64,000 bases of DNA from contig CP064968.1 of NCBI GenBank assembly GCA_016699245.1, positions 379,331 through 443,330 of the forward strand, in the 5' to 3' direction. The position numbers and the translations under genes are program-made. Positions within the stretch are counted from its first letter, which is position 1. Each line of letters opens with the position of its first letter. The notes beneath the pieces were generated by a model. That model was not told where the DNA came from, searched no databases, and worked only from the letters and a program-made list of their open reading frames with translations. This DNA comes from Candidatus Kaiserbacteria bacterium (lineage in GTDB: Bacteria; Patescibacteriota; Minisyncoccia; Phycocordibacterales; UBA918). Below, in pieces: positions 1,263-57,061 of the stretch.

Positions 1263-1721
1263 TTAAGAAATAAATTGGCGGACACTGCCTACTACTACGC
1301 CCCACACGAAGCAATCGTCGTGACCTTGGACAGTGATGGGCTGATAGGCTTCATTTTCTGAGATAAGTTCGTGCGTGTCGCCACGGGAGCGAAGGCGTTT
1401 TACCACCAGTTCCCCATACACCGCTGCCACCACAATAAGCCCATCCTTTGGGGTAATGGATCTATCTATCACAAGCACGTCACCCGAAAATATCCCCGCG
1501 CCTATCATTGAATCCCCTTCCACACGCACAAAAAAGGTCGATGCGGGGTGTCGCACGACTAAATCATTGATATCAAGCACCTTTTCAATCTGATCATCGC
1601 CCGGTGAAGGGAAGCCGGCCTGAGGACGGGAACTATACATAGAAAATTGCGCATCAGAAGATGCTACGCCACCGAGCACCTCTCCAGTGGCCTCGCGACT
1701 CTCGGATTTTTGATTTTGCAT
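1263..1721 (-). CDS. S24 family peptidase, UmuD/LexA C-terminal-domain-like (no HTH)
   Basis: VEGDSMIGAGIFSGDVLVIDRS...GELVVKRL matches the LexA/UmuD self-cleaving Ser-Lys dyad domain; no N-terminal DNA-binding domain. Confidence 0.6.
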   Translation of the reverse strand: MQNQKSESREATGEVLGGVASSDAQFSMYSSRPQAGFPSPGDDQIEKVLDINDLVVRHPASTFFVRVEGDSMIGAGIFSGDVLVIDRSITPKDGLIVVAAVYGELVVKRLRSRGDTHELISENEAYQPITVQGHDDCFVWGVVVGSVRQFIS

Positions 1722-2932
1722 TACACTATTGTAACACCCGTGAGGAGAGTATGTACTTCAAAGAGAAGTGCCATAACAGCAATAAGTCCGCTGGCATAGA
1801 CAATTTGGATTGGGTTTTGGCGACGCCACTCAATCACGATAGAAAGCATAAGTGCCAGAAACACAATGAGCGCAAGTGCGCCATACACCACCTGAAGCCA
1901 TTCACTGGGCTGGGTCATAAACTTTTCAAACAAAGAAGGGCTACTTGTATCAACTGAAGAAGGTGTATTGGGGTCGATGGTTGCCGGTACACCCTCACGT
2001 GAAGTAGTGGCAAGGTCGGTATACATCACCGTAGTACCATCATACGTGTATGAGGCAATCGTGGTGGAAGTACTCTCTTCCGCTTCAGTAATGGTGGTAG
2101 ATGCTTCAGGAGTAGTGTTTTCCATTACCAAAGTGCTCGATGCAGGGATTGCTGCCACCTCAATAGGCTGCGTTGCGGGCACCACCTTTATAGGAGGCGT
2201 GTTGGACGTTTCACCAAGAATATCAGTTTTAGGTGCTGGTGCTGGTGTCGGTGAAATGGCCTGTGCCACCACAGGCGGTGGAGCCACCACAGCGCTTGGC
2301 GTGCCAAAGAGTTGCACTACGAAAACTGTAGGCTCTCCCTCATAGGTACCTTTTGCAGTACCCACACCAATCTCATTGAAATTACCGTTCATAATATTGG
2401 CACGATGTGTCGGCGAATTCATCCATGCATCTACCACATCAGAAGAGTCAGTAAAATGCACTGCAAGATTTTCTCCCGCATGAATGAAATTGTATGACAC
2501 TTTATCAAACCAAAACCAAGGAGAGACTCCTGTGGGACTATAGTGTGCAAAATACCCATTCTTTGCCATGTCCTGCGCTTTGAGTTCTGCAGCGGCATCC
2601 AGTACATCACTGCGTGAAAGTCGTGAAAGAGAGTCTCCGCCACGTTCTTCATTAGTCAGATCAACTATCACTGCAGGAAGAATAGTAGAGACCATCCAGT
2701 CAGAACCAATCCAGACGAGCGCCTGAATATTTGCAATCGCAAACGAAAGAAGCACGAGCACAAGCATGATGCCCATCGATGCACGCTCAAGAAAGTCTGG
2801 CTTAAAATCATTTTTCTCATGCGGAATGAAATAATTTTTGAGATAGTCTTTTAACATTAATTTTATTATTTGCTCTTCACAGGTAAATATAACAAATTCC
2901 CTTCTCGAGCGTATATACTGTATTATAAGCAA
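1721..2932 (-). CDS. CAP (SCP/PR-1) domain-containing membrane protein with Thr/Pro-rich linker
   Basis: GYFAHYSPTG...HAGENLA...VDAWMNSPTHRANIM..NFNEIGVG is the CAP domain signature. N- and C-terminal hydrophobic segments present; start codon uncertain. Confidence 0.55.
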   Translation of the reverse strand: MLIIQYIRSRREFVIFTCEEQIIKLMLKDYLKNYFIPHEKNDFKPDFLERASMGIMLVLVLLSFAIANIQALVWIGSDWMVSTILPAVIVDLTNEERGGDSLSRLSRSDVLDAAAELKAQDMAKNGYFAHYSPTGVSPWFWFDKVSYNFIHAGENLAVHFTDSSDVVDAWMNSPTHRANIMNGNFNEIGVGTAKGTYEGEPTVFVVQLFGTPSAVVAPPPVVAQAISPTPAPAPKTDILGETSNTPPIKVVPATQPIEVAAIPASSTLVMENTTPEASTTITEAEESTSTTIASYTYDGTTVMYTDLATTSREGVPATIDPNTPSSVDTSSPSLFEKFMTQPSEWLQVVYGALALIVFLALMLSIVIEWRRQNPIQIVYASGLIAVMALLFEVHTLLTGVTIV

Positions 2933-50480: not shown

Positions 50481-50963
50481 TTGGTACACAAAAGAACAGA
50501 CACTTTAATTAATAAAAATTTGTGGTATAGTTGTGGAAATAAGATGAATTATCTCTTACCTCAGATTGAAGGAGTGATAGCTAAAATAAGTAAGTCTAGT
50601 GCATTGTATCCTTTATTGATTGGGCTTGTTTTTGCCGTCGCAGTTGTATGCATTGTTTTTACTCTTTCGGAAAATTCATGGTTAAGATTTTTTTCACTAC
50701 TGTTTCCAACGATAGTGCTTATCATGATTGTGCGGAGTTATGAACATTTTGCCAAGAATAATCCAGACATGCTCAGGTCAGAAACTCATGTTATACAAAA
50801 ACAAGCTTTGTCTCTTATTGGAGATGAAACACATACCCTTGGTACAAAAGCGACACACGTTTTGGCCATTTTGAATCCAAACAAGCCTATCGTAGATGAG
50901 GATTTACTTGAATTATCCCCAATTTCAGAAGTTCAATTGAGTGAACCCATAAAATTAGTATGA
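50481..50963 (+). CDS. membrane hypothetical protein
   Basis: Two TM helices; no motif. Confidence 0.4.
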   Translation: MVHKRTDTLINKNLWYSCGNKMNYLLPQIEGVIAKISKSSALYPLLIGLVFAVAVVCIVFTLSENSWLRFFSLLFPTIVLIMIVRSYEHFAKNNPDMLRSETHVIQKQALSLIGDETHTLGTKATHVLAILNPNKPIVDEDLLELSPISEVQLSEPIKLV

Positions 50964-51235
50964 ATGTCTATCTTATTGCCACAAACAGTAACCCCCCCTT
51001 CAATCTGACAAAGTTCCATAATTTTGTTACGATTAATTTATACCCCACACATGTTTCAGCATGGTGGCACTATCTCAGTGGGTCAGTATATATGGTAAAG
51101 ACGAATTTAAACGTAAACCAATTAAATCAATTAGTAAAACAGCACATGGGTGCTTTACATTACATGGTTATAAAAGTTGATCCGTTAGATGCTCAGGGAT
51201 GGTTACCTAAAGAAGGATGGGATTGGCTAAAGTAA
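50960..51235 (+). CDS. hypothetical protein, translationally coupled to the previous ORF (atga overlap)
   Basis: 91 aa ORF. Confidence 0.35.
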   Translation: MNVYLIATNSNPPFNLTKFHNFVTINLYPTHVSAWWHYLSGSVYMVKTNLNVNQLNQLVKQHMGALHYMVIKVDPLDAQGWLPKEGWDWLK

Positions 51236-51253
51236 ATCTTCTCAAATGTTATT

Positions 51254-51562
51254 TTAGACATTCGAAAGTATTTTTGATATTGTAAACCCAAAAAATAAAC
51301 TTGACGTTAGGGCTATAATTATACCTGCAAAAAATAATCCTATCCCAAAACCAAAACCGAATTTGATTCCAGAACCGACTCCAAGAGATACGTTATTGTA
51401 TTCCTCAGGTATGGTGTACACACTCTCTCCCTTTGCTTGAGCATTTTGCAAGTCTGCAACCACTTCTTTCTCCACCTTCTTGAGATTTTTAACAAAGTAA
51501 TCAATCAGTGCTACGACAATTAGCACTACTGCGGTTAGTACGAGTATTATAAAGGAATCCAT
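51254..51562 (-). CDS. small membrane protein with Gly-rich C-terminal TM region
   Basis: Two TM helices; GIKFGFGFGIGLFFAG. Confidence 0.4.
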   Translation of the reverse strand: MDSFIILVLTAVVLIVVALIDYFVKNLKKVEKEVVADLQNAQAKGESVYTIPEEYNNVSLGVGSGIKFGFGFGIGLFFAGIIIALTSSLFFGFTISKILSNV

Positions 51563-51699: not shown

Positions 51700-52530
51700 T
51701 TTACATGGACCTATTCTCTGTAAATGCTCGTTTTGCGGTCACGAGTTGCTAATTATTTTAGTTCGCTTCGCTTCTAAAATAATAAGCACCTTCATAAATT
51801 CTTTTATGTAAAAGAATTTATGAAGGGCTCAGAAAATATAATCGCTACGCTTATTATTTTCTGGCCACCCCAGCTCGCTGTTCATCACTTTTTGAAAGTG
51901 ACTCACAACGCTCGTGAAATAGTTTCCCAAACTATTTCACCCCGTCGAGCACGTACGTGACGCAGGTCACCTCTTTGCGGTCACGATAAAATTATCTCCC
52001 AGAAAATTTTATCTAAGTCTTTTCAAAGAAAAGTCTAAGCACTCTCGACCCCGACTCACTCGCCTAGCGGCATCGTTCCGTCTCCCGCAAAGGACCGCAA
52101 GCAAAGCAGTTTGCTTGCTACACAAAAGAACAGACACTTTCGTGTCTGTTCTTTTGTGTTCCTTTGCGGGCCCACGAGGGCTCGAAACTTACAGTTTCAG
52201 TACCCCTTTAGGATACTTTTCTTCATTTCATTCGAAAAGATATCTCTAAAGGGCTTCAAATCCTGATCGCACAGTGCCCCGCACTGTGCTTGGGCCCGCC
52301 CAGATATACAAAAAGCTGTCTTATGACAGCTTTTTGTATATCTGGGCGGGCCCACGAGGATTTGAACATTACATGTTCAGTACCCGTTGTGGCTATTTTA
52401 TTTCTTCGCTCTGCGAATCATAAAATAGCACGCAACGGCTTCGAGCCCGTGCTCCTGTTTGCATTCGCAAACAGATGCGCTTCGTGGGCCCGCCATATTA
52501 AAACACCTCATCAAATGAGGTGTTTTAATA
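51700..52530. repeat. non-coding hairpin array: series of perfect 8-30 bp-arm palindromes, including three units carrying copies of the tRNA-Trp 3' end (gcgggcccacgagg...) in both orientations
   Basis: Perfect palindromes at about 51793-51830, 51886-51910, 52105-52160, 52293-52356 (arms include tgggcccgcc) and 52484-52544 (arms = tRNA-Trp 3' end plus terminator). Direct copies of the tRNA 3' segment at 52166-52186 and 52346-52366. Confidence 0.8.
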
Positions 52531-52604
52531 TGGCGGGCCCACGAGGGCTCGAACCTCGGTCGCTGGTTTTGGAGACCAGAATTCTACCACTGAAATATAG
52601 GCCC
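52531..52604 (-). tRNA. tRNA-Trp (anticodon CCA), CCA end encoded
   Basis: gggcctatatttcagtggtagaattctggtctCCAaaaccagcgaccgaggttcgagccctcgtgggcccgcca. Confidence 0.85.
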
Positions 52605-52658
52605 AGGACTCCTATAGTACGGGAAATACGCATTGGGGTCAACGATTATATGAAGAAT

Positions 52659-53114
52659 TTAATAACCTTGGCTAGCCTTCCTTTTTATTATTATCTCCCG
52701 TGCAACTAACTCAGGAACACCAACAGAGACAAGATTTTCTACACTCCAAACGACCGCGGCTTCTGGGATAACTGTCCAACCTTTTTCTGCCGTATACACA
52801 AAAACTGATTCTCCTGCAGAATATCCATCATCCCATTCTTGTAAGGCATAATTTGAAACAATGATGGTATATCCAAGAGTGATTGGGAGTGGTGTCACGA
52901 CTTGCTTTTCAAACGCACTTTTTATCGCTACACGCTTCGTTTGTTCTTCTTGATTGATTGGCGTTTCTGTTGTTCCTGTAGTAGATGATGCTACGGGGAA
53001 AGTTGAGACACTACCATTTGGGGGTTTTGGGAGTTCGTTTGGTGACAGGACCCATAAAGAATAACCTAATCCAATAACTCCGAGAAGCCCAACTAGTATG
53101 ATTATCTTATTCAT
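52659..53114 (-). CDS. secreted hypothetical protein
   Basis: Signal peptide MNKIIILVGLLGVIGLGYSLWVLS. Confidence 0.45.
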   Translation of the reverse strand: MNKIIILVGLLGVIGLGYSLWVLSPNELPKPPNGSVSTFPVASSTTGTTETPINQEEQTKRVAIKSAFEKQVVTPLPITLGYTIIVSNYALQEWDDGYSAGESVFVYTAEKGWTVIPEAAVVWSVENLVSVGVPELVAREIIIKRKASQGY

Positions 53115-53126
53115 AGATTGAAGTTA

Positions 53127-54005
53127 TTAAATTTTATTTATGCTATAGATTCTTCCAGGTCCCGCTTTATAGGATGGGCTAAAACTTGAATCACTTACCC
53201 AAGAAAATGTTTTATTCGATGAACTGTTTGAAATTGTTTTTGTACATCCTGCATTCATGCAAATGCCCGTATGAGATCGTGAACCGTCAGTCACAATAAC
53301 AATATCCCCAGCTTTCGCAGCTGATTGATCAACCAATGTTCCCCTACCTCCTGCAAGTGCTTGCTCCATTGACTTCACACTATTACCATCAATGGGACTT
53401 ATGCCTGCATCTTCTAGTACTTTGTTTACAGCCCATGCGCATGCAAGTGAGCCACCACCAGGACCTCCTGCCGTTGAAAAACCTTGTGCCCCGAGTGCAG
53501 CAGCAGCAATTGATCCTGCACTTCCTCCACCCGGATTCGTCATACCACCCGGACCTGTATTTGTCGTAGCACCACCACTTGGTCCTGTCATCGTGGCGGT
53601 CATCGTTGGATTATCTACACACTGTACTGTACCCCACACCTCAATACCTTTGCCATCACTCATGACGGTCATAAGTATCGTGTTCACAATAAGCCATGCA
53701 CCGAGGAGGATGAAGAAACCTATGATAGAGTTCGACATCATTTCTTTTCCTTCTGAGACTTTTCCAGTGTTCCCTGCGGACATCACCATTTTCATGCCAC
53801 CAAAGGCGAACATGAGGGCAACGATAGTTGCAGATGCGCCTATAAACCAAGTCATCAATCCCTGCCCCATAGCAACAAAGTCACAGACGCGACACATTGG
53901 TTCGGGAGGACCACCACCACAGGGGACTAGGCCTGCAGCGTACGTGACAGAGGCGGTGAGAAGGAAGAGGCTTGTGATGAATAGTATGCGTTGGTTGGTG
54001 GTCAT
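53127..54005 (-). CDS. secreted two-TM pilin-like N-terminal module fused to a C-terminal CHAP/NlpC-P60-like cysteine peptidase/amidase domain
   Basis: Signal peptide plus two hydrophobic helices (VirB2/TrbC-like topology). C-terminus has nucleophile Cys in SLACAWAVN and downstream GDIVIV...SHTGIC His. N-terminal 160 aa about 97% identical to the 54605 paralog. Confidence 0.55.
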   Translation of the reverse strand: MTTNQRILFITSLFLLTASVTYAAGLVPCGGGPPEPMCRVCDFVAMGQGLMTWFIGASATIVALMFAFGGMKMVMSAGNTGKVSEGKEMMSNSIIGFFILLGAWLIVNTILMTVMSDGKGIEVWGTVQCVDNPTMTATMTGPSGGATTNTGPGGMTNPGGGSAGSIAAAALGAQGFSTAGGPGGGSLACAWAVNKVLEDAGISPIDGNSVKSMEQALAGGRGTLVDQSAAKAGDIVIVTDGSRSHTGICMNAGCTKTISNSSSNKTFSWVSDSSFSPSYKAGPGRIYSINKI

Positions 54006-54021
54006 AAAATAAAATTAGACA

Positions 54022-54597
54022 TTATAATGGAACACTACCCGGACAAAAACTAAATCGTAAATCCTGACTTGTGTAAAACTGATTAATAAAATACGGAACG
54101 CTCACCATATAGTCAATCTGGCACAACTGCTCCTCACTGAGTCCAAGATGGGTAAGCAAATATTGCTCAGCACCAGTGCGGGCTTTGCTTATTGGTTCTG
54201 AAGTAAGTGAAATATTGAAGTACTGTGTTTGTGCAACGTACATAATGGTAAAAGGAGGGTATGTTTCTACGAAAGAGCCATCAAGTGGAAAGTGTTCACC
54301 TAAGTGGTAATATCCCTCATTTTGAGGGTCTGCCACGGTGTCTGGGTCACTCATAAAATTACGCACCGAGAGAGTAGCACCCGATGTTGTATTGAGTGTG
54401 AGCAACGTATTACTACTACCCGTATTTGTAGAGGACGTGCCATCTGGATTTTGTGAGGCGTTTGTTCCGCTACTCGGAAACTCTGTTCCTTGATTTTCAG
54501 ACGGAGTATCCACTGCATTATTTGAAATGTAAAACCAAAAACCAAACCCCCCAAGGAGTAGTAATACAATGACGATAATGATGCTTTTATTATTCAT
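54022..54597 (-). CDS. membrane-anchored/secreted hypothetical protein
   Basis: N-terminal TM IIIVIVLLLLGGFGFWFYI then Ser/Thr/Asn-rich region; start chosen at MNNKSIII. Confidence 0.45.
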   Translation of the reverse strand: MNNKSIIIVIVLLLLGGFGFWFYISNNAVDTPSENQGTEFPSSGTNASQNPDGTSSTNTGSSNTLLTLNTTSGATLSVRNFMSDPDTVADPQNEGYYHLGEHFPLDGSFVETYPPFTIMYVAQTQYFNISLTSEPISKARTGAEQYLLTHLGLSEEQLCQIDYMVSVPYFINQFYTSQDLRFSFCPGSVPL

Positions 54598-54604
54598 ATA
54601 CAAT

Positions 54605-55441
54605 TTATGGTCCATACTTTGTAATACACGCTTGAGCTTTTGCATTACAATTGGCACAGGTCCAACTACTATATCCGCTCTGTGACACCAGCTTTTTTGC
54701 TACCTCAGCGTTGCACGATGCATTGGTACAAGACGAAAAACTACTGCAACTCGTGCCTTTTGCAGCACTTTCCCAAGTTGATTTAATGACTTGAAATGTG
54801 CCACATGCACTACCGCTTTTATTTTGCGCTGTAGGATTACCAGAACTCTCTGTCATCGCGATACACGACATGACATTTGCTTGTGAAGGAGTAAAGCCTG
54901 CGGCTGTAAGCGCATTCACACTGCACGCCGGATTAAGGCTCCCACACTGTATACCACTTCCTCCCCCCGGATTCGTCATACCACCCGGACCTGTATTTGT
55001 CGTAGCACCACCACTTGGCCCCGTCATCGTGGCGGTCATCGTAGGATTATCAACACACTGTACCGTACCCCACACCTCAACACCTTTACCATCACTCATG
55101 ACGGTCATAAGTATCGTATTCACAATAAGCCATGCACCGAGGAGGATGAAGAAACCTATGATAGAGTTCGACATCATTTCTTTTCCTTCTGAGACTTTTC
55201 CAGTGTTCCCTGCGGACATCACCATCTTCATACCCCCAAAGGCGAACATGAGGGCAACGATACTTGCAGACGCACCAATAAACCAAGTCATCAATCCCTG
55301 CCCCATAGCAACAAAGTCACAGACGCGACACATTGATTCGGGAGGACCACCACCACAGGGGACAAGCCCTGCAGCGTACGTGACAGAGGCGGTGAGAAGG
55401 AAGAGTGCTGTGGTGAATAGTATGCGGTGGTTGGTGGTCAT
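54605..55441 (-). CDS. paralog of 53127: same pilin-like N-terminal module fused to a C-terminal lytic-transglycosylase (SLT)-like domain
   Basis: CIAMTESSGNPTAQNKSGSACGTFQV resembles the SLT catalytic E-S...GLMQ block; several Cys pairs; N-terminal 160 aa near-identical to 53127 gene. Confidence 0.55.
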   Translation of the reverse strand: MTTNHRILFTTALFLLTASVTYAAGLVPCGGGPPESMCRVCDFVAMGQGLMTWFIGASASIVALMFAFGGMKMVMSAGNTGKVSEGKEMMSNSIIGFFILLGAWLIVNTILMTVMSDGKGVEVWGTVQCVDNPTMTATMTGPSGGATTNTGPGGMTNPGGGSGIQCGSLNPACSVNALTAAGFTPSQANVMSCIAMTESSGNPTAQNKSGSACGTFQVIKSTWESAAKGTSCSSFSSCTNASCNAEVAKKLVSQSGYSSWTCANCNAKAQACITKYGP

Positions 55442-55544
55442 GCTCCCTATATCGTACCATAGTACATTCAGGTACTTTTACTTATAAGTGAATTATGGTA
55501 CTTTAGAGCCTGTCCTCCTTACGGAGACAAATAATTACATATAT

Positions 55545-55561
55545 GCGTCGGTGGTGGAGTG
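55545..55561 (+). other. duplicate of the first 17-20 nt of tRNA-Tyr (atgcgtcggtggtggagtg) about 310 bp upstream of the intact gene
   Basis: Identical to 55854-55872 including 2 nt of 5' flank. Confidence 0.6.
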
Positions 55562-55660
55562 AGAAATGGGTGAGAAGCGAGTTTACGCAGCTTCGCAAGA
55601 CCTTGAGCAGTTTCTGCGAAAGGTGTACAGCAACTGTAAGTCGGGACCCATTTCGCAAGA

Positions 55661-55786
55661 GGTTGTAAGCAAAAGCTTTCTGATTGCACTCGTGTCATGT
55701 ATGAAAGTGAACTTTCATACTGTACACTCGTTTATCAGTCGATAGTTTACGAGTGAAGCGAGATAAACTATCATACAACCTGAACA
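55661..55786 (+). repeat. second copy of the structured element seen upstream of tRNA-Leu; contains the conserved-loop hairpin gatagtttacGAGTGAAGCGAGataaactatc
   Basis: Shares ggttgtaagcaaa(a)gctttctga..tcagtcgatagttt..tcatacaacctgaac with 46379-46497. Hairpin loop matches the loop of the tRNA-Gln repeat hairpin (ttattcGAGTGAAGCGAAGaataa). Confidence 0.65.
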
Positions 55787-55855
55787 GTCCCTGTAAAGGA
55801 GTCAATCACAACAGACTATTAAGTTATAGAGGTCTGAAAAGAACAATACAATCAT

Positions 55856-55938
55856 GCGTCGGTGGTGGAGTGGTCAATCACAACAGACTGTAAATCTGTC
55901 GACTTCGGTCTTCGCTGGTTCGAATCCAGCCCGGCGCA
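55856..55938 (+). tRNA. tRNA-Tyr (anticodon GTA) with long variable arm
   Basis: Acceptor gcgtcgg/ccggcgc (one G-U), anticodon stem acaga/tctgt with loop ctGTAaa, variable arm gacttcggtc, T-arm gctggttcgaatccagc. Confidence 0.85.
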
Positions 55939-55973
55939 CAAACCAAACATACATAACACGTAAGCGTTACGTA

Positions 55974-57002
55974 TCAAATTCCAATACTTGCTATTCTGTA
56001 TTCGATTAATTCATTTTCTTCTCTCCCATCATCAGCGTATGGTTTGTATACACCGTATTTTAATGAATTGCCATCCACCCACTCCATATTAGGATAGGCC
56101 CCACCATATCCAAACTCGCTTTGATGGAGACTCTCATTGGTATTTATTTTTACCACTTGAATCACTGCTCCAAATTCATAATCGTATATCTCGATAGTTG
56201 TTTCATCTGCTAACCGCGCAACTAATTTATTTGACGGAGACAATCTGTCACCACCATACGGATCAAAACCGAAATCAACGTCTTCAAAAGCCAAACTATT
56301 TCCATCAAATCGCAAAACTGAGCAACAATTTGAACCACCAAATAGTCCCTCAGATGTAAAATAAACCGAATTTGTGTCCACAGAGGAAAATAGTTTTACA
56401 ATATATCGACTGCGTCCATAATTAATATTTCGGAACTCAACCGAAAGATTTTTCTTAATATTAAGTTTATTATTCTCAAAGATATAACAAATGACAACTA
56501 CATCCTCAATTAAACACTCATGCTCAGACATAATCGAACCATTTGATAAAACTGTTTGAGTTAGTAGGTCAGTATCTATAAGAATTTCAGTAGATATACC
56601 ATCCTTGAAATTAGTGGGTAATTTTGAAACATAACTGACCGTTTCACTAGATTTCTCGTCTGCAGTTGATGTCTCCGGTGATCTTTGTTCCTCATTAATC
56701 TTCTCATCTTCTGTGAAAGTCAAAATGTCCTCAGTTATTATCGGATCACCTATAGGCGGAGTTCCTGATGAGATAGATTGGTCAGGAATTGGCATATTTC
56801 CAAAGTCAACGAGATCAGGTCTCCATATAGAATCATCCTCTTGCTGCACAATATCCTCTGTCTCCTTAATTATTAACGAATCAATATACAGATAAGTAGC
56901 TGCAATTACAGACACACCAATAATCGATAGACCGATGAGTGCAAAAATTCGAACAGAATTAAAAGAACCATTCTTGGTTATCTCTATGTTTTGTTGATCC
57001 AT
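55974..57002 (-). CDS. membrane-anchored hypothetical protein with acidic linker
   Basis: TM helix IFALIGLSIIGVSVIAATYLY; start at MDQQNIEI preferred because a terminator abuts the upstream Met. Confidence 0.45.
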   Translation of the reverse strand: MDQQNIEITKNGSFNSVRIFALIGLSIIGVSVIAATYLYIDSLIIKETEDIVQQEDDSIWRPDLVDFGNMPIPDQSISSGTPPIGDPIITEDILTFTEDEKINEEQRSPETSTADEKSSETVSYVSKLPTNFKDGISTEILIDTDLLTQTVLSNGSIMSEHECLIEDVVVICYIFENNKLNIKKNLSVEFRNINYGRSRYIVKLFSSVDTNSVYFTSEGLFGGSNCCSVLRFDGNSLAFEDVDFGFDPYGGDRLSPSNKLVARLADETTIEIYDYEFGAVIQVVKINTNESLHQSEFGYGGAYPNMEWVDGNSLKYGVYKPYADDGREENELIEYRIASIGI

Positions 57003-57061
57003 ATCACAAAAGCATAGCACACGCAGTTCGAACCATCTCCAACTCTGCGCACACAAACAAA

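Follow-up and report, generated by a model that had tools for sequence, protein, structure and literature searches.

CwlT of ICEBs1 is a two-domain VirB1-like peptidoglycan hydrolase of a Gram-positive conjugative type IV secretion system (T4SS). TraG of pIP501 and PrgK of pCF10 are likewise VirB1-like two-domain hydrolases of Gram-positive T4SSs (cited in PMC12102498). In Patescibacteria, proteins of the Pfam family PF18895 are treated as VirB2-like pilins of an essential T4SS (PMC12102498, PMC10633639, PMC12857230); the literature on these pilins describes the system as essential in Southlakia epibionticum, and what this T4SS and its VirB2-like pilins do in Patescibacteria has been called "completely unknown" (PMC11665869). 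The published pilin arrays have a mean identity of 25% and a maximum of 54%, and pilus biogenesis was inferred to need no VirB1 homologue, as VirB1 hidden Markov models (HMMs) find few; the one class with an association between VirB1 homologues and virB4 is Paceibacteria (PMC12102498). Here, we analyze a 64-kb stretch of the genome of a Candidatus Kaiserbacteria bacterium (contig CP064968.1; hereafter, the window), in which two neighboring genes, A and B, encode a PF18895 pilin module fused to different predicted cell wall hydrolase domains. With a probability of roughly 60%, we read this locus as a vertically inherited four-gene operon that encodes a pair of pilin-built hydrolases, with modules homogenized by gene conversion and catalytic heads that are exchangeable together with their partner genes.

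The operon consists of four tightly packed minus-strand genes, in the order B-x1-A-x2 and with intergenic gaps of 7-16 nt, between a tRNA-Tyr and a tRNA-Trp gene (Table 1). A previous sequence-only reading of this stretch had noticed that A and B share about 500 bp at about 95% identity before diverging completely, and the measured values agree with it: over coding nucleotides 1-486, the genes differ at 24 positions (95.06% identity), with 16 of the differing codons synonymous and 6 non-synonymous, and identity falls to chance level beyond both borders, to 25% in the 60 nt past the shared tract and to 15% upstream of the ATG. The assignment of the shared part to a signal peptide and two transmembrane helices of VirB2/TrbC-pilin-like topology also stands. 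Both proteins match PF18895 (T4SS_pilin) over residues 50-110 above the gathering score of 26.6 bits (A, 32.6 bits; B, 32.2 bits) and contain hydrophobic segments at residues 7-27, 49-77, and 89-117. The AlphaFold model of A consists of a signal helix (residues 3-23), a helical hairpin (39-75 and 80-115, with a predicted local distance difference test score [pLDDT] of about 80-86) and a disordered region (120-160), the G/T/N/P-rich linker being located at residues 131-162. Four cysteines, Cys29, Cys38, Cys41, and Cys129, are invariant or near-invariant in the module among 32 diverse homologs, and all lie on the extracytoplasmic side, with Cys129 sitting in the W..I.C motif that closes the pilin module.

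The same module is found in other Patescibacteria as stand-alone proteins of 110-160 aa, which head arrays of 2-8 small pilin-like genes, and the stand-alone PF18895 pilins end exactly where the linker starts in the fused proteins. The 2 forms meet at 2 of the related Patescibacteria loci (labeled L001, L002, and so on; WIN denotes the locus of the window): in L037, a stand-alone pilin array has a fused pilin at its head, and L043 has one fused pilin heading an array and a second ~2 kb upstream. Directly before the stand-alone arrays lies a gene for a solute-binding protein of the extracellular type (SBP_bac_1/8); in L042, L047, and L043, GyrA is located upstream of it, and no T4SS ATPase was found among the inspected open reading frames (ORFs) around them. 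In 2 Patescibacteria, GyrA is interrupted by an intein (Intein_splicing domain).

Beyond the linker, the 2 proteins carry unrelated domains. The C-terminus of B, in which the sequence-only reading had recognized an SLT/lytic-transglycosylase-like ES...GxFQ signature, scores above threshold with both SLT_3 (PF18896; 37.8 bits, cutoff 27) and SLT (PF01464; 28.8 bits, cutoff 21.3), and the motifs ..MTE198S.. (E198-S199) and G214TFQV are readable in its translation. B is thus predicted to be a glycan cutter of the SLT_3/SLT lysozyme-like type, and more than 100 homologs have the same architecture. The C-terminus of A, for which a CHAP/NlpC-P60-like Cys...His signature had been proposed, remains below the Pfam CHAP cutoff (20.3 bits versus 26), but it can be placed in the NlpC/P60-CHAP group because of a profile match to CwlO, its predicted fold, and its invariant cysteine and histidine. 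The family profile of the domain (alignment A4) matched in PDB the CwlO DL-endopeptidase of B. subtilis (E 8e-6) and a RipC-like NlpC/P60 protein (1e-3), and some homologs of the domain match Pfam NLPC_P60 or CHAP. Residues 163-292 are modeled with a pLDDT of about 90; the top Foldseek matches of the model are 4xcm_B, an NlpC/P60 DL-endopeptidase (prob 1.0), and 4hzb_A, the amidase effector Tae3 (TMt 0.68), and the matches also include the CHAP endolysins PlyGRCS and PlyPy. C189 and H245 do not vary among 25 pilin-fused homologs (A4) or among 91 homologs without the pilin module (A7), and C249 and C254 probably form a disulfide. In a library-wide HMMER search, the A-type domain was present in 548 cluster representatives, always at the C-terminus; among the top 150 proteins, 59 carry the pilin module and the others GH19, PG_binding_1, and DUF4231/SLATT_3, among others, a placement behind varied N-termini that fits a wall-directed catalytic cassette. 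A is predicted to be an NlpC/P60-CHAP-like cysteine peptidase, that is, a peptide cutter, and, judging from domains and topology, A and B would be peptidoglycan hydrolases that are exported, tethered to the membrane, and complementary in bond specificity.

For a broader view of the locus, the sample comprised contigs with close homologs and 52 loci from GTDB species representatives; the search relied on the narrower alignment A3, the broad 32-sequence alignment A2 being too divergent, and 26 related loci contain fused genes. At 5 loci, namely, WIN, L001, L002, L004, and L007, the paired modules are 94-100% identical within a genome, compared to 50-77% between genomes. The nucleotide sequences of the tract show 100% identity over ~450 nt in L001, L002, and L007 and 93-100% identity in WIN and L004, with sharp borders at the ATG and at the linker end. 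The C-terminal domains of the paralogs are unrelated folds, the orthologs of which are recognizable across genomes; accordingly, the duplication predates the species, and the N-terminal tract must have been homogenized repeatedly. This pattern indicates that recurrent gene conversion keeps the N-terminal modules near-identical. Pairs from more distant lineages share only 59-74% or 31-41% of module residues, so the conversion is clade-specific.

The sequence-only reading had also proposed domain swapping behind a conserved module, a view that we can extend from 2 C-termini to at least 7 C-terminal classes across the 26 related loci. Iterative HMM searches divided the C-termini of 37 fused genes into SLT_3-like, SLT (PF01464-type), NlpC-like, M15L, and 3 further LAS-like motif classes. 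All 11 two-gene loci combine one lysozyme-like (SLT_3 or SLT) gene with one peptidase-like gene, and in 10 of these, the glycosidase-like gene precedes the other, the order being reversed in L043. Close relatives differ in their head pairs: SLT_3 and NlpC in WIN, SLT_3 and M15L in L002, SLT and NlpC in L004, and SLT and M15L in L001. As far as sequence comparison goes, the heads are exchanged in the manner of cassettes. Among the peptidase-type heads of the fused pilins, M15L is the most frequent, with H216, H223, D230, E269, and H272 invariant (alignment A8); no sequence match to it was found in Pfam, PHROG, or PDB, and the H-x6-D...E-x2-H pattern alone suggests an undescribed LAS/M15-like family of zinc peptidases.

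Two further secreted proteins had been pointed out in the segment, and both x1 and x2 proved to be membrane-anchored and extracytoplasmic. In x1, an N-terminal membrane anchor and an S/T-rich linker precede a well-folded domain of ~125 aa (ectodomain pLDDT > 90) with 2 invariant cysteines, C159 and C185, whereas in x2, a hydrophobic anchor (residues 1-25) and an S/T/P-rich linker precede a globular domain. The 2 sequences are unrelated, with a common design of anchor, linker, and compact ectodomain, which matches what might be expected of an extracytoplasmic hydrolase inhibitor in a monoderm cell. Neither protein received a Pfam, NCBIfam, PHROG, or PADLOC assignment; the best fold match of x1, weak and marginal, is the immunity protein TipC2 of a T7SS (type VII secretion system), likewise an anchor-plus-ectodomain protein. 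Each family follows one class of enzyme: the x1 family lies directly after 9 of 9 SLT_3-like genes and after 1 of 26 genes of other classes (Fisher p = 1.4e-7, phylogeny ignored), and the x2 family directly after all 3 NlpC-like genes (WIN, L004, and L006) and after none of the 32 others (p = 1.5e-4, phylogeny likewise ignored). The SLT (PF01464-type) and M15-like/LAS-like cassettes are without a partner gene, save for an x1 copy after M15L in L029; M15L genes mostly stop about 50 nt before tRNA-Trp, leaving no space for a partner. We consider x1 and x2 candidate cognate inhibitors or immunity proteins.

The locus occupies a recurrent site. The arrangement of tRNA-Tyr (divergent), 1-2 pilin-hydrolase genes, tRNA-Trp, and then (RecQ) MiaA ParB RelA TopA DprA SerS is kept in about 20 of the 26 fused-gene loci, down to a pilin-module identity of ~31%. 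tRNA-Tyr lies directly upstream of the first pilin-hydrolase gene and tRNA-Trp after the last one in most related loci, and IF-2 and ClpB are often found on the tRNA-Tyr side. In the window, the neighbors at one end are TopA, RelA, ParB, MiaA, and RecQ, and the neighbor at the other end is an ABC/FtsX transporter; tRNA-Trp follows x2 at a distance of 54 nt on the same strand. Between WIN and L004, TopA, RelA, RecQ, and MiaA are 80-87% identical, compared with ~51% for the pilin module and 39% for x2. Rather than a recent insertion, this is an old locus that is inherited vertically and evolves fast. The best-conserved non-coding stretch in a 7-locus alignment, a block of ~44 nt located 30-73 nt upstream of the ATG of B, probably acts as the promoter or a regulatory region for the operon.

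Both flanking tRNA genes named by the sequence-only reading are supported by ARAGORN and Rfam calls, and the tRNA-fragment repeats that it described are present. Those of tRNA-Trp, at 52346-52369 and 52166-52189, are copies of the T-arm/acceptor 3' end and lie ~180 nt apart on the minus strand, within 52100-52530; a perfect hairpin of 18-30 bp follows tRNA-Trp and each of these 2 copies. The distance from tRNA-Trp to RecQ is ~2.0 kb in the window, compared to ~0.5 kb in L004, and the stretch, including 50481-51562, contains 3 small ORFs of 160, 91, and 102 aa; the 160- and 102-aa ORFs have no confident Pfam match, and the 91-aa ORF was compared with PADLOC only. If anything, a tRNA-3'-end integration remnant nearby would be this tRNA-Trp/RecQ stretch and not the hydrolase operon. 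On the other side, the tRNA-Tyr repeats (55536-55561 and 55801-55822) are 5'-half fragments. Many genomes (WIN, L002, L004 [two copies, ~203-nt unit], L005, L008, L009, L011, L018, and L024) have one or two repeats of such fragments, with ~9 nt of leader included, in the interval from tRNA-Tyr to the first pilin-hydrolase gene. In L007, the true tRNA-Tyr 5' end directly abuts the conserved block upstream of gene 1, so the other genomes look like tandem expansions of the tRNA 5' end plus leader in the divergent promoter region.

Table 1. Coordinates of the pilin-hydrolase operon, its boundaries, and further features of the window and of related loci.
Feature	Locus	Coordinates	Strand	Description
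tRNA-Trp (CCA)	WIN	52531..52604	-	ARAGORN; Rfam tRNA 60.2 bits; conserved locus boundary
x2	WIN	52659..53114	-	151 aa
Gene A	WIN	53127..54005	-	292 aa; locus tag IPH92_02055; NCBI name 'hypothetical protein'; pilin module, linker, and NlpC/P60-CHAP-like domain
Gene A, catalytic domain	WIN	53130..53519	-	codons 163-292; papain-like, NlpC/P60-CHAP-type (predicted)
Gene A, pilin module and linker	WIN	53520..54005	-	codons 1-162; putative gene-conversion tract, copy 1
x1	WIN	54022..54597	-	191 aa from ATG; mechanical ORF begins at GTG 54657
Gene B	WIN	54605..55441	-	278 aa; NCBI name 'transglycosylase SLT domain-containing protein'; pilin module, linker, and SLT_3/SLT lysozyme-like domain
Gene B, lysozyme-like domain	WIN	54608..54955	-	codons 163-278
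Gene B, pilin module and linker	WIN	54956..55441	-	codons 1-162; putative gene-conversion tract, copy 2; 95.06% identical to 53520-54005
Conserved non-coding block	WIN	55471..55514	-	upstream of gene B
tRNA-Tyr (GTA)	WIN	55856..55939	+	ARAGORN and Rfam; divergent from gene B; conserved upstream boundary
ORF beyond tRNA-Tyr	WIN	55974-57056	-	360 aa; TTG start
CAP-domain protein	WIN	1721-2932	-	403 aa; PF00188, E 8e-19
M15L-carrying gene	L001	7983-8822		alignment A8
M15L-carrying gene	L002	6289-7143		alignment A8
M15L, further loci	L005, L008, L009, L011, L014-L016, L018, L023, L029, L030, L043			alignment A8
SBP-pilin array	L042	8646-9932		
SBP-pilin array	L047	8604-9941		
SBP-pilin array	L050	8626-9924		
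SBP-pilin array	L037	1863-3155		
SBP-pilin array	L043	8492-9793		
GyrA with intein	L042	4987-8619		
GyrA with intein	L043	1798-5451		

Two further proteins of the window were recorded. The ORF beyond tRNA-Tyr contains a hydrophobic stretch at about residues 35-55; it has no match in Pfam, NCBIfam, PHROG, or PADLOC and no homolog in the related loci and is lineage-specific. Near the other end of the window, a protein with a CAP/cysteine-rich secretory protein domain is a candidate for secretion.

The following scheme would connect these observations. The operon B-x1-A-x2 sits at a fixed site, tRNA-Tyr / operon / tRNA-Trp-RecQ-MiaA-ParB-RelA-TopA, common to Kaiserbacteria and other Paceibacteria-type Patescibacteria, and each predicted enzyme comprises a signal peptide, a complete VirB2-like T4SS pilin module, a flexible linker, and a catalytic domain. 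Sec export and signal-peptide cleavage would leave the pilin hairpin in the membrane with both ends outside, as in VirB2, and the enzyme would be displayed at the cell surface on a tether of ~30 residues. The tethered enzyme may act locally, or it may be polymerized, pilin-like, into a Patescibacterial T4SS-type pilus with its C-terminal cargo facing outward. The pair would open peptidoglycan locally, as bifunctional SLT+CHAP VirB1-like enzymes do in Gram-positive conjugation. By keeping the modules alike, gene conversion would cause both enzymes to be handled identically by whatever recognizes the module, and the SLT_3 and NlpC cassettes would travel with x1 and x2, most likely cognate inhibitors that shield the wall of the producer. 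We infer both the incorporation of A and B into a pilus and the target wall, which may be that of the producer or that of its host. The balance tilts slightly toward an outward-directed role because of the association of VirB1 with virB4 in Paceibacteria (PMC12102498), the fast evolution of the locus, and the partner genes. A more specific, tentative version, which we regard as rather unlikely, is an 'armed' pilus, in which minor VirB2-like cargo pilins would co-polymerize at the surface or tip of the T4SS pilus and drill through host peptidoglycan, the modules being kept alike by conversion, the producer protected by x1 and x2, and the heads matched to the host.

Several observations weigh against the reading of the locus as an operon of T4SS-related, pilin-built hydrolases with cognate partners. 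Neither in the window nor in the 10-kb flanks of the related loci was a VirB4, VirD4, VirB6, or virB3 gene found (a recurrent neighbor of ~900 aa, considered as a VirB4 candidate, was rejected, as it is ClpB), so the connection to a T4SS depends on family assignment alone; inherited from family annotation, it is the weakest step of the argument. The similarity of the module to classical VirB2/TrbC appears weak: no window protein matches that family (PF04956), for which the best score among relatives is 26 bits, below the threshold of 27.9; the match to NCBIfam NF045849, 'pilin-like conjugal transfer protein' (E 5e-4), is below the cutoff of that model; Foldseek aligns the module only weakly with the archaeal conjugation pilus 8dfu (TMt 0.60, E 2.7); and the pilin-module profile has no match among PDB sequences. 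With a cargo of 130 aa on each pilin subunit, filament packing may be sterically hindered to the point of incompatibility, and, given the VirB1-virB4 association in Paceibacteria, there is less need to assign the fused enzymes to pilus assembly alone. As to the partners, x1 has no significant structural relative, the co-variation statistics for x1 and x2 carry no correction for phylogeny, and the partnerless SLT and M15-like/LAS-like cassettes weaken a general effector-immunity reading.

Among the alternatives, those that concern the origin of the segment fare worst. An assembly artefact, with a repeat collapsed or duplicated in a metagenome-assembled genome (MAG) as the source of the near-identical N-termini, is extremely improbable: repeat collapse could exaggerate the identity of the ~450-nt tracts that are 100% identical in L001, L002, and L007, but the window copies have 24 differences in 486 nt, mostly synonymous, those of L004 also differ, the borders of the tract fall precisely at the ATG and the linker end, and the two-gene architecture recurs in 5 MAGs from different projects (WIN and 4 others). 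The sequence-only reading had named such an artefact as a possible source of the identity, which these differences and the recurrence in 4 other MAGs exclude. The same reading took the tRNA flanks as the signature of a genomic island, and a horizontally acquired segment inserted between 2 tRNA genes, or in variants a remnant of prophage lysins or of an integrative and conjugative element (ICE), would account for the tRNA genes on both sides, the partial tRNA duplicates close by, and the weak matches of the B lysozyme domain to phage tail and transglycosylase PHROGs. We nevertheless consider it very improbable. Both tRNA genes are transcribed away from the segment, which lies on the 5' side of each, and the tRNA-Trp 3'-end repeats are located outside it, on the RecQ side; the segment encodes only A, B, x1, and x2, with no integrase, relaxase, phage, or other mobility gene, and its GC content of 0.43-0.46 is no anomaly within the 0.36-0.51 seen over the window. 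No match was found in phage and plasmid collections (tblastn) or in PADLOC, and IMG/VR contained no relative of the module. Together with the synteny of locus and flanks in about 20 of the 26 related loci, these results contradict the island signature, and an island, prophage, or ICE origin was rejected.

The alternatives on function are harder to set aside. Possible, if on balance unlikely, are host-directed or interbacterial polymorphic effectors, with the pilin module as delivery domain, the heads as toxins against a foreign wall, and x1 and x2 as immunity proteins; this account overlaps the preferred reading and differs mainly in the target, a foreign wall instead of the producer's own. 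It would explain a conserved N-terminus with at least 7 exchangeable C-terminal classes, partner genes that are tightly class-specific, and a locus that evolves much faster than its neighbors, and it gains from the resemblance of the A domain to the T6SS (type VI secretion system) amidase effector Tae3 (TMt 0.68), from the attachment of that domain, as a C-terminal cassette, to numerous unrelated N-termini, SLATT/DUF4231 among them, and from the best, weak fold match of x1 to TipC2, which has the same anchor-plus-ectodomain design (PMC6193138). It has to contend with the 22 of 23 SLT and M15-like/LAS-like genes that have no downstream partner, and neither orphan cassettes nor immunity arrays were seen, nor delivery machinery nearby. 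The opposite view, that A and B are housekeeping autolysins, in which the two-helix module is a membrane anchor of pilin ancestry and the enzymes work on the cell's own wall, in its growth, its turnover, or the splitting of the septum, independently of any pilus or T4SS, seems doubtful to us. The fixed, class-wide position among core genes (ClpB, IF-2, MiaA, ParB, RelA, and TopA) speaks for it, as do the peptidoglycan machinery encoded in the window (a D-Ala-D-Ala carboxypeptidase, YceG, and FtsQ) and the lack of T4SS genes nearby. However, the homology of the module to stand-alone pilins extends over its full length and includes the 4 conserved extracytoplasmic cysteines, and autolysins would not be expected to evolve at twice the rate of their neighbors, to swap catalytic folds among close relatives, or to require class-specific partners.

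From the domain assignments, at least one large class has predicted wall-cutting enzymes that are fused to the pilin itself and are consequently missed by VirB1 profiles. This offers a testable hypothesis on how ultrasmall monoderm epibionts pass an appendage or cargo through their own wall or that of the host. x1 and x2 represent 2 new small protein families, candidate inhibitors of lysozyme-like and NlpC/P60 enzymes, respectively. The locus is also a clean example from nature of how a targeting module evolves in concert while catalytic heads are exchanged as cassettes together with the partner genes linked to them, and it cautions that a tRNA-flanked segment need not be an island.

In comparison with known systems, the N-terminal 130 residues of A and B belong to the same family as the VirB2-like pilins, and their arrays, known for the Patescibacterial T4SS (Wang et al. 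2023, PMC10633639; Quinonero-Coronel et al. 2025, PMC12102498) and have the same topology, a signal peptide followed by a helical hairpin. Unlike those pilins, A and B carry a C-terminal enzyme and are not encoded beside virB4, and the modules of the paralogs are 94-100% identical, well above the 25% mean and 54% maximum of the arrays; the survey of VirB2-like pilins (PMC12102498) does not describe pilin-hydrolase fusions. The domain pair PF18895 and PF18896 is already known from databases (JGI 'Type IV secretion system pilin/Lysozyme like domain') and is exactly the architecture of gene B. The other features are undescribed there, and the searchable, incomplete literature contains no account of pilin-peptidase fusions, the paired operon, the tRNA-Tyr/tRNA-Trp locus, gene conversion, cassette exchange, or x1 and x2.

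Effector-immunity pairs, such as Tae3-Tai3 (PDB 4hzb) and Tse3-Tsi3 (PMC3792639) of T6SSs and TelC-TipC of a T7SS (PMC6193138), resemble this locus in their exchangeable wall-targeting C-terminal domains and in a small adjacent partner that co-varies with the enzyme class and is exported or anchored on the wall side. The domain of A superposes on Tae3, and the similarity of x1 to TipC2 is marginal. In contrast to these pairs, no T6SS or T7SS is present here, the delivery domain would be a pilin, and most cassette classes are partnerless. A functional parallel is offered by the VirB1-like hydrolases, which, like the predicted activities of A and B taken together, combine a lysozyme/SLT-type glycosidase with a CHAP/NlpC-P60 peptidase and which share with A and B an N-terminal hydrophobic anchor, a location at the outer face of the membrane, and a monoderm envelope. 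In VirB1-like hydrolases, both activities reside in one polypeptide with a simple transmembrane anchor, encoded inside a T4SS operon, whereas in A and B they would be split over 2 genes, each with a complete pilin module, and T4SS genes are lacking at the locus, where the type of peptidase is itself exchangeable among NlpC, M15-like, and other LAS-like heads.

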